This document shows, piece after piece, positions 1 through 5,020 of a stretch of 5,020 nucleotides of DNA (its first letter is position 1; every line of letters begins with the position of its first letter). The position numbers were made by a program, and so were the translations under genes. The notes under the pieces are model-generated. The model saw only the letters and a program-made list of their open reading frames with translations, searched no databases and was not told the origin of the DNA. Source of the DNA: a virus (Duplodnaviria; Heunggongvirae; Uroviricota; Caudoviricetes); IMG/VR virus record IMGVR_UViG_2684622620_000016, positions 1-5,020 of that record; one strand, 5' to 3'.

Positions 1-1
1 G

Positions 2-421
2 TCAGCTTGCCGCTTTCACGATAAACGTCACAACACCAAAGATATCCAGTGTATCTTCGCTATTTATCGTAATGGGTGCATAAGAGCTATTTTCAGGAAC
101 AAGCATAAGTATTGGATGTAACTGCAGACGTTTAACTGTGAACTCGCCATCAATGGCAGCGATAACAATATCTCCATGTGCAGGTTTTCTGGAACGGTCG
201 ACGACCAGCAAATCCCCATTACCGATCCCCGCTCCAGTCATAGAATCACCAGATGATTTCACGAAGTATGTCGCATTTGGATGCTGAACTAATATTTCAT
301 TGAGATCAATGCGTTGTTCAATGTAATCCTGCGCTGGCGAGGGAAAGCCGCATGGGACAAGATCACTAAATAAGGGAAGCGCAACTATCTGGCGCAACTC
401 AGCTGGCGAATAAAACTTCAT
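2..421 (-). CDS. umuD: UmuD-like SOS mutagenesis protein (LexA-like S24 self-cleaving peptidase fold), 139 aa
   Basis: Translation from the internal Met ([30 protein letters not shown]...GDSM...FTVKRL...) matches UmuD in length and motifs: a Cys-Gly cleavage-site-like CGF, the catalytic Ser in GDSM and the Lys in VKRL. ATG is read as cat at 419-421 and stop TGA as tca at 2-4. The ORF-track extension to 553 would run over the operator and the dinI-like start and is rejected. Any umuC partner would lie beyond the window start. Confidence 0.85.
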
Positions 422-438
422 AATAAACTCACTCACAC

Positions 439-467
439 TTACACTGTATATAAATACAGTATATACT
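439..467 (+). promoter_or_regulatory. Putative sigma70 promoter for the dinI-like gene
   Basis: -35 ttacac (439-444), 17-bp spacer, -10 tatact (462-467). LexA box 1 lies in the spacer and box 2 overlaps the -10 and +1. RBS aaagaggag at 483-491 precedes the ATG at 499. Confidence 0.4.
442..461. promoter_or_regulatory. LexA box 1 (SOS box)
   Basis: cACTGTATATAAATACAGTa: CTGT at 444-447, 8-nt AT-rich spacer, ACAG at 456-459. This is a near-perfect match to the E. coli LexA consensus TACTGTATATATATACAGTA. Confidence 0.75.
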
Positions 468-483
468 GGTATTAAACACAGTA
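464..483. promoter_or_regulatory. LexA box 2 (imperfect, CTGG-N8-ACAG)
   Basis: tACTGGTATTAAACACAGTa: CTGG at 466-469 and ACAG at 478-481. As recalled, the chromosomal dinI operator uses the same CTGT/CCAG half-site variant. It overlaps the putative -10 of the dinI-like promoter. Confidence 0.5.
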
Positions 484-498
484 AAGAGGAGTTAAAGC

Positions 499-741
499 AT
501 GTTCGTGGAACTCGTTTATGACAAAAGGAATTTTGATGGTCTGCCCGGTGCAAAAGATATCATTTTGGGCGAGTTAACCAAGAGGGTTCACCGGATCTTT
601 CCCGATGCTGATGTTCGGGTTAAACCGATGATGACACTGCCGGCGATCAACACTGATGCCAGCAAGCATGAGAAGGAACAGATAAGCCGTACTGTTCAGG
701 AAATGTTTGAAGAGGCTGATATGTGGCTGGTTGAAAACTAA
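499..741 (+). CDS. dinI: DinI-like DNA-damage-inducible protein, 80 aa
   Basis: An 80-aa product of the same size as DinI with a recognisable DinI-like pattern ([17 protein letters not shown]...[23 protein letters not shown]). Strong SD (AAAGAGGAG) 8 nt upstream of the ATG, with LexA boxes immediately upstream. Confidence 0.8.
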
Positions 742-770
742 GCGACCAAAAACCCTGATAAAAATCCAGG

Positions 771-791
771 TTACTCGGGTGAGTAATTTCG
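771..791 (+). terminator. Weak hairpin downstream of the dinI-like gene (possible terminator)
   Basis: ttactc-gggt-gagtaa inverted repeat (6-bp AT-rich stem) followed by tttcg. Weak; listed with low confidence. Confidence 0.25.
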
Positions 792-841
792 ACTAATATC
801 CATTATAAAAATGTGAAAAGAAAAGAATATTCGTCAACTCC

Positions 842-1582
842 ATGCCCATTGAATCATTGCGTGTAATCGAAATTATCAGGCGAATACCTGACTGTGCAAC
901 TGAGCCATTTCTCTGCAAATGTGACGATGGTGAGCTTTATGTTGTAAAGGGTATGCCTAGCGTTCCTCGGGTACAACTCATTGCAGAATGGGTATCAGCA
1001 CACCTTGGTTTGAAACTGGGTCTCTCATTGCCTGATTTTAGTACGGCATATGTAGACCGAGCTTTAACTCAGTATGTGCCTGAATGGCGAAATGCCTTAA
1101 ACGAGGGTTATGCGTTTGCAACAAAATTTATCCCGGGCGTAGCCCCTATAACTTTTACCCAAGCCCATACTAACGTTGACGAACAAGACCAAAAGAAAAT
1201 CTATCTCTTTGATAGATGGATAAATAACTCAGATCGTACCCTGTCACCACAGGGTGGCAACGTGAATATTATTTTTGATTACCGTAACAATAGATATTAC
1301 CTGATTGATCATAATCTCGCCTTCGACCAAAATGATGATGAGGAAGCTTTTGACTACCATGTCTATGCTCCGCGGCATCGTAAGTGGTGGTTTGACATCG
1401 TCGACAGACCGCTCTCTGAAGATGAACTAATCCGCACTAAGGAAATCCTACCTTTATGTGTAGAGAGCATCCCTGATGAATGGTTGCCAGAGACTCAAGA
1501 AGAACGAGAAGTGTGTTTGTCTCGAATTGAAACGCTATTGAATCGTAACGAAACAGATGTATTTTGGAGTAAAATCAAATGA
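842..1582 (+). CDS. Hypothetical protein, 246 aa; small HipA-like / PI3-4-kinase-like atypical kinase domain (putative)
   Basis: Long ORF. Motif FDRWINNSDRTLSPQGGN resembles the HipA catalytic loop as I recall it (FNLLIGNTDDHLKN), and YYLIDHNLAFD resembles a Mg-binding DFG-equivalent about 25 residues downstream. N-terminal YVVKG may be a beta3-Lys-like element. The SD before the ATG at 842 is poor. Spot GC counts on 60-nt lines give about 35-43%, lower than flanking genes. The family call rests on motif memory only. Confidence 0.6.
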   Translation: MPIESLRVIEIIRRIPDCATEPFLCKCDDGELYVVKGMPSVPRVQLIAEWVSAHLGLKLGLSLPDFSTAYVDRALTQYVPEWRNALNEGYAFATKFIPGVAPITFTQAHTNVDEQDQKKIYLFDRWINNSDRTLSPQGGNVNIIFDYRNNRYYLIDHNLAFDQNDDEEAFDYHVYAPRHRKWWFDIVDRPLSEDELIRTKEILPLCVESIPDEWLPETQEEREVCLSRIETLLNRNETDVFWSKIK

Positions 1583-2397
1583 CTACGCCATGTCTATACA
1601 GCATTGTAAGATATGCGCCGTTTGCTGAAACTGAAGAGTTTGCAAACATCGGCGTAGTCGTCTGCGCACCTCAAAAACACATATTCCTCTTCCGACTAAC
1701 TCAAAGTAATGACGCCAGGGTTACGTCTTTCTTCAAAGATGACACTATCTTTCCCTTGGCTAAAGATGCTGTTGCTAGGGAGCTGGCCTTTGCTCAAGAG
1801 CAGACAAAAAACGTTAAAACGGCCGATGATGTCGCCAATTTCTTCAGCTATTTGACGGCTAAAAGGGAATCAATCTTTCACTTCAGCTCAACACGTGTAG
1901 TTCTGGCTGAAAACCCAGAGCAAGAGCTACAAAGGTTGTATGCAAAATTTGTAAACCATACAGATTATAACAAAGAGCGTAGAGAAGAGATTCTTACCAG
2001 AGAGCTAAAAGGACGGCTGAATTCTTATGCAGAACTGCAGAATATTTTCCGTAAGGAAACAATCGGCGGGGATTTGATAAGGTTTTCAATGCCGTTCGTT
2101 GCCAAGCAGGAAGATGAAGTACTTTGCGCTATCAAGCCACTCGCGTTCGTCCAGCAGGAACCTGGTAAGATGATGGAACACTGCGACTCATGGGTATCAA
2201 GAGTTAAGCGAGCTGCTGATGAGAAATTGCTGAATCTAGCCAATGTTCTTTTTACCATTGATGGTCATAAAAATCCGAGCACCTCTGAAGCGAAAGCTAT
2301 GGATGAGATTAGGAGAACGTTTGACCGTAACAACCTTGCACACTTTAGACACAATGATGAAAAGTCTATAATCGATTTTGCAAAAGCATCTATCTAA
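1579..2397 (+). CDS. Hypothetical protein, 272 aa, translationally coupled partner of the kinase-like gene
   Basis: The start overlaps the upstream stop by 4 bp (ATGA at 1579-1582). GGAG SD at 1567-1570. No catalytic motif that I can recognise. The N-terminal motif YSIVRYAPFAETEEFANIGVV is faintly reminiscent of a DUF-type family (possibly DUF3037), but I cannot confirm this from memory. Confidence 0.65.
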   Translation: MTTPCLYSIVRYAPFAETEEFANIGVVVCAPQKHIFLFRLTQSNDARVTSFFKDDTIFPLAKDAVARELAFAQEQTKNVKTADDVANFFSYLTAKRESIFHFSSTRVVLAENPEQELQRLYAKFVNHTDYNKERREEILTRELKGRLNSYAELQNIFRKETIGGDLIRFSMPFVAKQEDEVLCAIKPLAFVQQEPGKMMEHCDSWVSRVKRAADEKLLNLANVLFTIDGHKNPSTSEAKAMDEIRRTFDRNNLAHFRHNDEKSIIDFAKASI

Positions 2398-2400
2398 TCG

Positions 2401-2428
2401 ACCCGGCCTATGCGCCGGGTTTTTATTT
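2401..2428 (+). terminator. Rho-independent terminator of the two-gene operon
   Basis: acccggc (2401-2407), 6-nt loop ctatgc, gccgggt (2414-2420), followed by tttttattt. This is a 7-bp GC-rich stem plus a U-tract, 3 nt after the stop at 2395-2397. Confidence 0.85.
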
Positions 2429-2571
2429 CATATTTCAGATTAGACGCCTTGAAACGTCACATTGCTTAAGTACAATCCGCTGCGACTGCCAATCATTCAG
2501 TAAACCACTACAACTATCGAACGTTCGCCAGTTCGCCGATGCCCGTTCTTGCATACGACGAGCCTGCGGTT

Positions 2572-3126
2572 TCATTTATCTCCGGCCGGAAACTTCTTAT
2601 ATAGTGTCGATACACCAACATCATAGATGATCGCCACCTTCTGGCGAGGAACTCCTGATGCAATTAATCGCCCGGCCTGCGCCCATTGTTCTGTTGTAAG
2701 TTTGGGACGACGTCCACCAATTCGTCCCTGTACACGAGCAGCTTCCAGCCCGGCTTTTGTTCTTTCAACAATCAGTTCACGCTCCATTTCAGCCAGGGCA
2801 CCCATCACATGAAAGAAAAAGCGCCCCATTGGTGTGCTGGTATCAATAGCATCCGTCAGGCTGCGAAAATTAACGCCACGTTCGCGCAACTCTTCCACCA
2901 GCACGACAAGATGCCGCATACTGCGCCCCAGTCGGTCCAGTTTCCAGACCACCAGCGTGTCACCTGCCGATAATGTCCTGAGCAGCTTTTTCAGTCCTGG
3001 TCTGTCGGACTTTGTACCGCTTATCTTGTCTTCAAAAATCAGCTCACATCCTGCACAGTTCAACGCATTACGTTGTAGATCGGTGTTCTGGTCATTTGTT
3101 GATACGCGAACATAGCCAATAAGCAT
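2572..3126 (-). CDS. pin: Serine DNA invertase, Pin/Gin/Hin/Cin family, 184 aa
   Basis: Translation from MLIGYVRVSTNDQNTDLQRNALN... (catalytic Ser in the VRVSTxxQ motif) through a C-terminal helix-turn-helix (GVPRQKVAIIYDVGVSTLYKKFPAGDK). From memory it is nearly identical to Pin of E. coli e14. Start ATG at 3124-3126 with SD AGGAGGAG just upstream on the minus strand. The 12 extra N-terminal residues in the ORF track are rejected. Confidence 0.95.
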   Translation of the reverse strand: MLIGYVRVSTNDQNTDLQRNALNCAGCELIFEDKISGTKSDRPGLKKLLRTLSAGDTLVVWKLDRLGRSMRHLVVLVEELRERGVNFRSLTDAIDTSTPMGRFFFHVMGALAEMERELIVERTKAGLEAARVQGRIGGRRPKLTTEQWAQAGRLIASGVPRQKVAIIYDVGVSTLYKKFPAGDK

Positions 3127-3180
3127 GATAGCTCCTCCTGACAAAAACAGGAACGATGCCATTTGCGCGCTATTTCTGCA

Positions 3181-3264
3181 TTTTCATAAACGTTGGTTTG
3201 NNNNNNNNNNNNNNNNNNNNNNNNNNNNNNNNNNNNNNNNNNNNNNNNNNTTGGTTTGAGAGAA
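3181..3264. other. Putative invertase crossover site (gix/pix/hix-like), interrupted by the N gap
   Basis: Left flank ttttcataaacg|tt|ggtttg (3181-3200) and right flank ttggtttgagagaa (3251-3264) resemble the 12-2-12 Gin-family site architecture (TTnnnnnAAACC NN GGTTTnnnnnAA). It is located between the invertase 5' end and the start-less fibre cassette, as at Mu gixR and e14. Confidence 0.45.
3201..3250. other. Run of 50 N (assembly gap or masked sequence)
   Basis: Directly visible in the sequence. The same octamer ttggtttg sits on both sides of the gap (3193-3200 and 3251-3258). Confidence 1.
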
Positions 3265-3885
3265 GGTTCATTTGGGTTCAGAAATCTGGTTACCTTCACA
3301 ACGGCTGGAGTAACAAGCTGGACTGTTCCTGAAGAGTTGCGCAAAGGAAGAAAATGTTACGTCAAAGTTATTGGTGGCGGTGCGTCAGGAGGGATAGGTT
3401 CAACAACCGCTTCAGCCGTTACATGTGGCGGAGGAGGTGGTGGGGGCGGAGTTGCTGAGGGACTGGTAGATTTAACTGGTATAAACAGTGTTTCGATTAC
3501 GGTTGGTGCCGGTGGTGCGCCTGTGTCTGGTATTTCTGTAAACGGTAAAAATGGTGGCTCGAGCAGTTTCGGGACTTACATGTCAGCTTCCGGAGGCTAT
3601 AGCGGAGGCCAGCCTTCCGGAGGGTTAGGCGCAGTTGGTGTCGGGGGAACAATTAATACATCGCTTGGGCCAGGTTCTCCAGGTTCCATTGCTTCTGCCG
3701 CATCGGGGGCTGGTAATGGTGGTTCTGGTGGTGGCCCCGGAGGAGCAGGTTCATTCAGAGATACAGCTAACGGAAAAGCGGTATCAGCAGTTGGGCCTGG
3801 AGGTGGCGGTGCTGGATTATGTCCTAATTCATCAACGGGTCAGTCGGGTGCCGGAGCAGATGGCGCAGTTTATATTTACTGGTGA
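3253..3885 (+). CDS. Tail-fibre C-terminal variable segment (Sv'-type), glycine-rich, start-less (5' end undefined because of the gap)
   Basis: Open frame from the gap to TGA at 3883-3885 with no plausible start or SD. The product is extremely Gly/Ser-rich with repeated poly-Gly blocks (GGGASGG, GGGGGGGG, GAGGAP, GGYSGGQPSGG, GNGGSGGGPGGAG, GPGGGGAG). Its position next to the invertase site matches the silent alternative fibre tip of Mu, P1 and e14 inversion systems (stfE-like). Confidence 0.7.
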   Translation, partial: GLREGSFGFRNLVTFTTAGVTSWTVPEELRKGRKCYVKVIGGGASGGIGSTTASAVTCGGGGGGGGVAEGLVDLTGINSVSITVGAGGAPVSGISVNGKNGGSSSFGTYMSASGGYSGGQPSGGLGAVGVGGTINTSLGPGSPGSIASAASGAGNGGSGGGPGGAGSFRDTANGKAVSAVGPGGGGAGLCPNSSTGQSGAGADGAVYIYW

Positions 3886-3892
3886 GGTTCAT

Positions 3893-4063
3893 ATGTGGGC
3901 AAGAATTGAAGAAAATAAAGTAGAAGAGATAACGGAAATTAATCCTGAAGGAAGATTCCATCCATCATTAATATGGAAAGAATGCCCTGCTGACACACAG
4001 CAGGGGGATTTATATATTGATGGTGAGTTTATTGCGCAGTCTCCGGCAGTTCAGGCCAGATAA
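3893..4063 (+). CDS. Short ORF, 56 aa, immediately downstream of the Gly-rich fibre segment; possible small cognate chaperone or truncated tail-fibre assembly protein
   Basis: ATG at 3893 preceded by GAGG (3884-3887). Product MWARIEENKVEEITEINPEGRFHPSLIWKECPADTQQGDLYIDGEFIAQSPAVQAR. It lacks the conserved tail-fibre assembly C-terminal motif. Its 3' end overlaps the convergent tail-fibre assembly gene by about 35 nt. Confidence 0.4.
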   Translation: MWARIEENKVEEITEINPEGRFHPSLIWKECPADTQQGDLYIDGEFIAQSPAVQAR

Positions 4064-4637
4064 CATCCGGCGCGGTGCTGGTATCTGTTGCCGTCACCGC
4101 GTCAATGTAATCCAACACCGTGTTAAGTCGGCTGGTTTCTGACTGCGTCAGATTCCGTCCGGCCTGTAATTTCAGCTGAATCAGACTGATGGAAGCCATT
4201 GCAGCATCAATCAGTGACTGACGCTGTGCTTCTGCCGCGTCTACTGCGGCGCTATGCTGTGCCTCAGTATCGGTCACCCATTTCTCACCATCCCATTTAT
4301 CGTATGGCGTTAATGGGGCGATAGTGGTTGTATTTTCAGGATAATCACCCGGTGCTGTGATTTCTTTCGATTCTCCTGTTTCGGTGCTATAGACGATTTC
4401 ACTGCGATGGTCTGGCACATATTCCCACGAGTTATAATCTGCAGAACGGCAAATTGCATAACCAGCTTTATATGAGCCGGGAGCATCTAAACAGGAACAT
4501 GCCGGAATGCCGACACCCACAGCAAGATATTCAGTTGATGTGAAAATATATTCCCGTGTTTCACCATCATAGTTATAAACAGTAATATTTCCTGCCTGGG
4601 TGGCGATAAATTCGTTATTTAATACGGCGTAATCCAT
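4029..4637 (-). CDS. tfa: Tail fibre assembly protein (lambda Tfa / Mu U family), 202 aa
   Basis: The C-terminus (LNTVLDYIDAVTATDTSTAPDVIWPELPE) matches the conserved tail-fibre assembly motif (lambda ...RVDTSTAPDIEWPAVP). The central PENTTTIAPLTPYDKWDGEKWVTDTEAQ matches lambda [28 protein letters not shown]. The start ATG overlaps the upstream stop in a TAATG arrangement (4635-4639), with SD GAGGG upstream. Confidence 0.9.
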   Translation of the reverse strand: MDYAVLNNEFIATQAGNITVYNYDGETREYIFTSTEYLAVGVGIPACSCLDAPGSYKAGYAICRSADYNSWEYVPDHRSEIVYSTETGESKEITAPGDYPENTTTIAPLTPYDKWDGEKWVTDTEAQHSAAVDAAEAQRQSLIDAAMASISLIQLKLQAGRNLTQSETSRLNTVLDYIDAVTATDTSTAPDVIWPELPETAQ

Positions 4638-5020
4638 TATGCAGCCCTCACGATATACGCAAATGCCAGGTTCCGTGGTCTGGTTTCTTTAATTAAAGAG
4701 GAGGCATCAGGTGAACTCACTGATTCAGCACCATTTCTTCCACCAGTGGTATAAGTAAAAACTCTTTCACTGTTAGACCAGTAATCCACACCAACTGTTT
4801 TTGCTGATGAAAAAATGGTTTCATCAGATATAACCTGTTCTATTCCATACGGGATATTAGTAACTGACCCCACTTTTGTAGGTATTCCATGATTATGAGA
4901 AATTACTGCATGCTCTTGATTCGTTAATAAAGTACGACCGCTATCCACTCCACGCCCGTCATCCCAGCCACGAATAAACTCACCACGTAAATCAGGCAAT
5001 TTATTTGTCGGGTAAGCCTT
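4637..5020 (-). CDS. Tail fibre protein, C-terminal part (phage tail-collar-like domain); partial, 5' end beyond the window
   Basis: The frame is open from the window edge (...KAYPTNKLPDLRGEFIRGWDDGRG...ETRPRNLAFAYIVRAA, then stop). The LPDLRGxFxRG and ETRPRN..YIVR motifs are typical of phage tail collar / fibre C-terminal domains. The TTG start in the ORF track at 4999 is an artefact. The stop is coupled to the tail-fibre assembly start. Confidence 0.85.
   Translation of the reverse strand, partial: KAYPTNKLPDLRGEFIRGWDDGRGVDSGRTLLTNQEHAVISHNHGIPTKVGSVTNIPYGIEQVISDETIFSSAKTVGVDYWSNSERVFTYTTGGRNGAESVSSPDASSLIKETRPRNLAFAYIVRAA

Follow-up and report, generated by a model that had tools for sequence, protein, structure and literature searches.

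A run of 50 N, located exactly at positions 3201 to 3250, interrupts the DNA analyzed here (the window, meaning the whole stretch of 5,020 nt), and the same octamer, TTGGTTTG, abuts the run on both sides, at positions 3193 to 3200 and 3251 to 3258. The locus raises the question of whether real sequence is concealed by the N run and why the assembly was interrupted at this place, between an invertase gene and a tail fibre segment without a start of its own. The same 8-mer is expected on two arbitrary gap edges with a probability of approximately 1.5e-5 (about 1 in 65,000); a third copy of the octamer was found at position 1005, and there were no further copies in the 5,020 bases. A sequence-only reading had placed the gap on the crossover site of an invertible segment and had offered two explanations for it, an assembly break caused by inversion heterogeneity in the sequenced population and a gap or mask inside a duplicated junction.

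An exact match to the DUF3037 protein of the window led to GenBank LECG01000089.1 (GCA_001309675.1, E. coli O103:H2 strain PARC445), which contains the whole window unchanged, N run included; the run lies at 9623 to 9672 of locus L059. The scaffold has 277,655 bp, extends a single base beyond the window and ends within the collar-type fibre part.

An invertible tail fibre segment in an e14-like prophage

The window covers the invertase-proximal end of a Pin-controlled invertible tail fibre segment, in a prophage that is e14-like and has a baseplate of the Mu type (Table 1). The invertase shares 95% identity with PinE of the e14 prophage of E. coli K-12 and matched the structure of phage Mu Gin (3UJ3) at 1.9e-94; it is built as a small serine recombinase, with the catalytic domain at the N terminus and a helix-turn-helix at the C terminus, and its N terminus, MLIGYVRVSTNDQ, contains the conserved serine. 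Beyond the gap, the gene arrangement is that of a phage tail fibre switch, with a Gly_rich_2 part and a 56-aa open reading frame (ORF) on the plus strand and a collar part with a Caudo_TAP chaperone on the minus strand. The 56-aa ORF gave no Pfam or PHROG match. It follows the glycine-rich part in the position expected for a fibre assembly gene, it shares 35 nt at its 3' end with the convergent tfa gene, and the gene callers of other records pick longer, out-of-frame ORFs of 67 or 115 aa at this locus.

Table 1. Features of the window, with the supporting match or observation for each
Feature	Positions	Strand	Basis
umuD-like gene, 139 aa	5-421	-	Peptidase_S24 2e-29
dinI-like gene	499-741	+	
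HipA_2 kinase gene	842-1582	+	Domain search
DUF3037 gene	1579-2397	+	Domain search
pin-type serine DNA invertase, 184 aa	2572-3126 (stop included)	-	Pfam Resolvase 7e-51, HTH_7 2e-14
ATG in the spacer between pin and pix	3156-3158	+	In frame with the invertase-proximal fibre segment after removal of the artefact
pixR outer half-site, TTTTCATAAACG	3181-3192		Identical to the published pixR outer half (other strand CGTTTATGAAAA) and to the K-12 e14 locus (L053)
TTGGTTTG, copy 1: crossover core TT (2 bp) and 6 nt of the inner half-site; 3' end of contig A	3193-3200		Simulated mixed-orientation unitig stops at the same base
50-N scaffold gap, no real sequence behind the N	3201-3250		Present in LECG01000089.1; complete genomes contiguous
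TTGGTTTG, copy 2 (3251-3258, 5' end of contig B): core TT and full inner half-site GGTTTGAGAGAA (3253-3264, with AGAGAA at 3259-3264)	3251-3264		Start of simulated unitig B identical
Alternative fibre C-terminal part, glycine-rich, without own start	3253-3885	+	Pfam Gly_rich_2 1.8e-11; PHROG tail families
Small ORF, 56 aa	3893-4063	+	ORF list; annotated "hypothetical protein" in relatives
Tail fibre assembly protein, TfaE type, serves the collar-type part	4029-4637	-	Pfam Caudo_TAP 4.8e-32; PHROG 105 2e-96
Alternative fibre C-terminal part, collar type, running off the window edge	4637-5020	-	PHROG 523 tail collar fibre protein 2.7e-37

The layout of the window prophage is that of e14 in K-12, with ymfQ, the stfP constant part, the invertible segment and pin, and in both prophages the segment carries two fibre C termini and their chaperones on opposite strands. 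However, the variable part of K-12 StfP/TfaP is replaced by the glycine-rich domain and the 56-aa ORF, the cargo by pin consists of HipA_2 and DUF3037, dinI and umuDC rather than of mcrA as in K-12 e14, and the window-type prophage is complete in relatives, whereas e14 is a remnant. The switches of phages Mu and P1 also swap the C-terminal part of a tail fibre.

The same prophage is present in the complete genome of UTAK-5, which matched positions 1 to 3200 of the window at 100% and positions 3251 to 5020 (1,770 nt) at 99.5%, the latter stretch lying on the other strand with respect to pin. In this genome, the stfP constant part, of 97 codons, continues in frame into the glycine-rich part, and it is the collar part that adjoins pin. 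Four further assemblies (L054, L057, L060, and L061) have the UTAK-5 orientation, and in these as in UTAK-5 the in-frame fusion of the glycine-rich part to the StfP constant part gives a 307-aa product; in the window orientation the glycine-rich part is cut off from the fibre constant part and is in the OFF position. Both orientations are thereby represented across strains, one in the window and the other in the UTAK-5 set, and a P2-like prophage with the same segment is also known both ways (L043 versus L044). The two sites of UTAK-5 are inverted, have the same core and read TTTTCATAAACG TT GGTTTGGGAGAA and CTCTCGAAAACC TT GGTTTGAGAGAA, with 1,894 nt between the cores. The second pix site lies approximately 120 nt beyond the scaffold end, as read from the continuation in UTAK-5.

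The 1,770-nt segment matched one place only in the UTAK-5 genome. Of the 147 index blocks for the Tfa protein encoded by the segment, 67 were without a carrying contig longer than 2 kb, which fits a segment of approximately 1.9 kb that is often assembled alone, the contigs of that collection being short generally.

The HipA_2 and DUF3037 genes overlap by 4 nt and match both components of PDC-M66, a PADLOC candidate defence system (3e-12 and 8e-16). The pair occupies a variable cargo slot between dinI and pin, in which DUF4145 (HH107), a GIY-YIG LEM-3-like gene (ECCHD184), mcrA (K-12 e14), or an AAA_15/AAA_21 ATPase together with a 177-aa protein (L051) was found in related prophages. Between the divergent umuD-like (minus strand) and dinI-like (plus strand) genes, positions 453 to 468 read CTGTATATAAATACAG, a match to the LexA-box pattern CTGT-N8-ACAG; in view of this predicted LexA box, the umuD-like/dinI-like prophage cargo is probably under SOS regulation. 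The umuD-like gene is intact in the window and is annotated as frameshifted in UTAK-5 (L042, 8670 to 9090), where the matching stretch has 3,201 nt versus 3,200 nt in the window.

The crossover site and the sequence behind the N run

When the flanks were collapsed onto one octamer, they gave TTTTCATAAACG-TT-GGTTTGAGAGAA, which reads TTCTCTCAAACC AA CGTTTATGAAAA on the other strand. This sequence has two imperfect 12-bp inverted half-sites around a 2-bp core and fits the dix consensus, and 8 of 12 positions are complementary between its two arms. Compared with the Din-family sites tabulated in Table 3 of PMC3241671, the collapsed site was identical to the published e14 pixR at 25 of 26 positions, while hix, gix, cix, mix, bix, and pixL shared 15 to 20 of 26. 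Thus, pixR was the closest of the pix, gix, hix, and cix sites with which a comparison had been suggested. The window coordinates and the pixR match confirm that the gap falls on the crossover site between identical octamers, and the 12-2-12 imperfect palindrome that had been read from the letters as resembling Gin-family sites holds as well.

In K-12 e14, the sites are TTTTCATAAACG TT GGTTTGGGAGAA on the pin side and CTCTCGAAAACC TT GGTTTGGGAGAA on the stfP side. The outer half and the core of the window site are identical to those of the pin-side K-12 site of the Pin/pixL-pixR P-segment, and A replaces G in one inner half-site, GGTTTGAGAGAA, which is one base off the published pix. The enzyme belongs to the same Din family of Fis-dependent serine invertases as those of the Gin/gix (Mu), Cin/cix (P1), and Hin/hix (Salmonella) systems, whose sites have the same 12-2-12 architecture with strand exchange at the 2-bp core (PMC3241671); in sequence, however, the window site shares just 15 to 20 of 26 positions with them. 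The window core, TT/AA, is as in hix, cix, and pix, whereas the gix core is GA (PMC3241671). In the Hin system, a Fis-bound recombinational enhancer is located in cis approximately 100 bp from one site (PMC3798978), and, going by position, a putative Fis enhancer of the window would lie in the 5' part of pin, at around 2960 to 3090.

To see what finished genomes contain at this place, positions 2950 to 3500 of the window were searched by megablast against 5,426 complete E. coli genomes. Eleven complete genomes spanned the junction, and in all 11 the matched stretch was approximately 58 nt shorter than the query. The alignments of ECCHD184 and HH107 read ...TTTTCATAAACGTTGGTTTG[A/G]GAGAAGG..., with a single octamer and zero bases between the flanks, and the collapsed 26-mer was found exact and uninterrupted in the complete genome of ECCHD184. 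Because the complete genomes read through with one octamer, the true distance between the flanks is -8 bp and not +50 bp, and 50 is therefore not a measured length. There is likewise no real duplicated junction, since the complete genomes have one octamer and nothing between; with the N run present in the public scaffold as well, the suggestion of a gap or mask inside a duplicated junction is not supported. Almost certainly, no sequence is missing from the window at this position and the site is pixR.

If both copies of TTGGTTTG were instead genuine, with approximately 50 real bases concealed by the N run between them, the hidden stretch could be, for example, a second pix half-site in tandem or a small insertion that had duplicated an 8-bp target. 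The sole support for such an insert is that the record formally declares 50 unknown bases, whereas none of the related genomes has anything between the flanks and the near-identical prophage of UTAK-5 has a single uninterrupted site at each end. Hidden bases would also leave unexplained that the octamer edges are the exact limits of identity between the two sites, and we consider their presence very improbable. A mask applied by the preparer of the window or of the collection is less credible still, to the point of being hardly conceivable. The description of genome_contigs does mention stretches masked as N, but a mask would overwrite bases and would not create a second copy of an octamer of which every relative has just one. 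The same 50 N were present in the NCBI WGS record, which was fetched independently, and the mask is refuted on this basis: the N run is part of a public GenBank scaffold and is therefore not a mask.

Removal of the artefact changes the reading of the neighboring sequence. The gap does lie between the invertase and the fibre segment, as had been proposed, but 58 bases of the 126-bp spacer described there are artefactual (50 N plus the second octamer), and after their removal the site center lies approximately 67 bp upstream of the pin ATG. The caution that the reading frame across the gap could not be trusted was justified, as deletion of the 58 artefactual bases puts the ATG at 3156 in frame with the fibre segment. 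From this ATG, the corrected sequence contains a 223-aa ORF that begins MPFARYFCIFINVGLREGS..., and the same start is the one that annotators choose for the invertase-proximal copy in K-12 (stfE), UTAK-5, and HH107. The record is best read with positions 3201 to 3258 deleted, which yields an intact pixR and a changed frame of the adjacent gene call.

Origin of the assembly break

The PARC445 genome (LECG00000000) was obtained from DNA of an overnight LB culture, which was sequenced as HiSeq 100-bp pairs with 300-bp inserts at 585x, with Quake used for read filtering and ABySS 1.3.4 for assembly (PMC4563881). ABySS builds its contigs from a de Bruijn graph and has a scaffolding stage that uses paired ends (PMC5596377). 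The locus has the properties of a scaffolding artefact: the N run is in the deposited scaffold, the assembler was a k-mer assembler with paired-end scaffolding, the flanks overlap in finished genomes, and the contigs end at branch points of the graph.

In UTAK-5, the pin-side junction reads ...AAACG-TTGGTTTG-GGAGAAGGCTC (next base G) and the fibre-side junction reads ...AAACC-TTGGTTTG-AGAGAAGGTTC (next base A). The stretch that the two sites share is exactly TTGGTTTG, with G or C as the bounding base on the left and A or G on the right. The comparison of the window with UTAK-5 therefore confines the natural crossover to 8 bp that include the canonical TT core. An inverted UTAK-5 locus that was built in silico reproduced the flanks of the window joined without a gap. 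We then walked unitigs in the k-mer graph at k values of 25, 31, 48, 64, 80, and 96. With mixed orientations, the pin (A) unitig ended ...AAACGTTGGTTTG / ...CATAAACGTTGGTTTG and the segment (B) unitig started TTGGTTTGAGAGAA / TTGGTTTGAGAGAAGG at all six k values; either clonal orientation simulated alone gave no break.

These results are consistent with the following mechanism. Pin cuts both pix sites at the central TT/AA dinucleotide and turns the segment of approximately 1.9 kb, and the inversion puts either the collar-type or the glycine-rich part, each with its own downstream gene, behind the fibre constant part. An overnight culture with both orientations would contribute all four junctions to the reads, and these would share only TTGGTTTG because the outer half-sites differ on the left (G versus C) and the inner half-sites on the right (A versus G). 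In the de Bruijn graph, the long contigs would end or begin exactly with the octamer, while the short junction paths, with a length of approximately 2k-10 nt, would probably be too short to be kept or to serve as scaffolding seeds and would be dropped. The paired-end scaffolder of ABySS would then have joined the pin contig to the segment contig with both octamers retained, and we propose that the 50-N placeholder was written because the estimated distance was below the scaffolder floor. We take the source of the placeholder to be the default minimum gap of abyss-scaffold, presumably 50; no confirmation of this default was found in the literature searched. If both orientations were present, another LECG01 contig is predicted to end ...CTCTCGAAAACCTTGGTTTG, and a piece of approximately 130 nt starting TTGGTTTGGGAGAAGGCTCTGC would be expected if short contigs were kept.

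The inversion heterogeneity that had been suggested as the cause of the break is supported by the identity of the site as pixR, by the use of ABySS, by the octamer being exactly the shared stretch, and by the simulation. We therefore consider it very probable that the contigs broke at pixR owing to the presence of both segment orientations in the sequenced PARC445 culture. Short-read contig breaks at invertible segments have the same form as the one described here, with ends at the limits of the shared site sequence and an N run of fixed length. However, the 8-bp overlap is peculiar to the two single-base site differences of the window prophage, and the K-12 sites would share a longer stretch. 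Two independent drafts of the same prophage (L062 and L063) have contigs that come within 9 and 17 nt of the window's break point before ending. Five other assemblies of this prophage cross the site unbroken, and thus assembly-breaking heterogeneity is not general.

A break of the same kind could also be induced by repeats in a clonal culture, if further related prophages of PARC445 supplied both alternative continuations. Up to six to seven places per E. coli genome match the region, the scaffold end at 5021 lies within a widely conserved fibre core (the last 53 nt of the window were exact in 39 IMG/VR contigs and had no exact match in genome_contigs), and a contig of another genome, L052, ends inside a pix site, which fits a two-prophage repeat. 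In simulations of this situation, the A end was reproduced by adding a prophage of the HH107 type and the B start by adding one of the L044, L045, or L047 type. However, when each of 54 fetched loci was added singly to a clonal genome in the window orientation, none (0/54) reproduced both ends as a single second prophage at any of the four k values used. Additional prophages would have to contribute two specific junctions, one of them with a pin-upstream flank identical over at least k-9 nt. The segment is present in a single copy in UTAK-5, which carries the same prophage. Furthermore, the paired-end link at the true distance of -8 shows that the junction between pin and the glycine-rich part is real in PARC445. 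On balance, a purely repeat-induced break at pixR is unlikely, and the mixture of orientations remains the preferred explanation.

The other interruption of the record, at 5021 where the scaffold ends, has the look of a contig break induced by a repeat, namely another fibre gene in the same genome. Because this end lies in the widely conserved fibre core, its position suggests that PARC445 carries at least one more related fibre gene. In the genome CP099129, two P2-like prophages have the same invertible segment at two loci (L048 and L049). The L052 contig, from another assembly (GCA_022885065.1), ends ...GAACCTTCTC, immediately in front of the base that is polymorphic in the inner half-site, which shows that prophage repeats also break assemblies at pix sites, at a different base than that of the window.

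The invertase-proximal fibre copy and inversion switches in draft genomes

The tail fibre switch based on Pin and pixR is already known and adds nothing new biologically, with descriptions of the Pin/pix system and its relatives going back to the 1980s. An ATG in the spacer, in frame with whichever fibre segment adjoins the invertase, was present in all distinct pin-side junctions compared (27/27, from e14-like and P2-like prophages, L001 to L053), and this leads gene callers to predict a protein of 182 to 223 aa from the copy that is assumed to be silent. These in-frame ATGs would predict that the invertase-proximal copy of the fibre C terminus is not silent, a prediction to which we assign only a slim chance, and the conservation of the ATG may reflect just the regulatory sequence of pin or shared ancestry. 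If the prediction were true, the switch would alternate a full-length fibre of one kind with an anchorless receptor-binding fragment of the other, which would depart from the usual picture of one expressed and one silent copy. For draft genomes, the orientation of the segment in a scaffold is not a fixed property of the strain, and a placeholder gap with a short exact duplication by a serine invertase gene is a usable signature of an active inversion switch.
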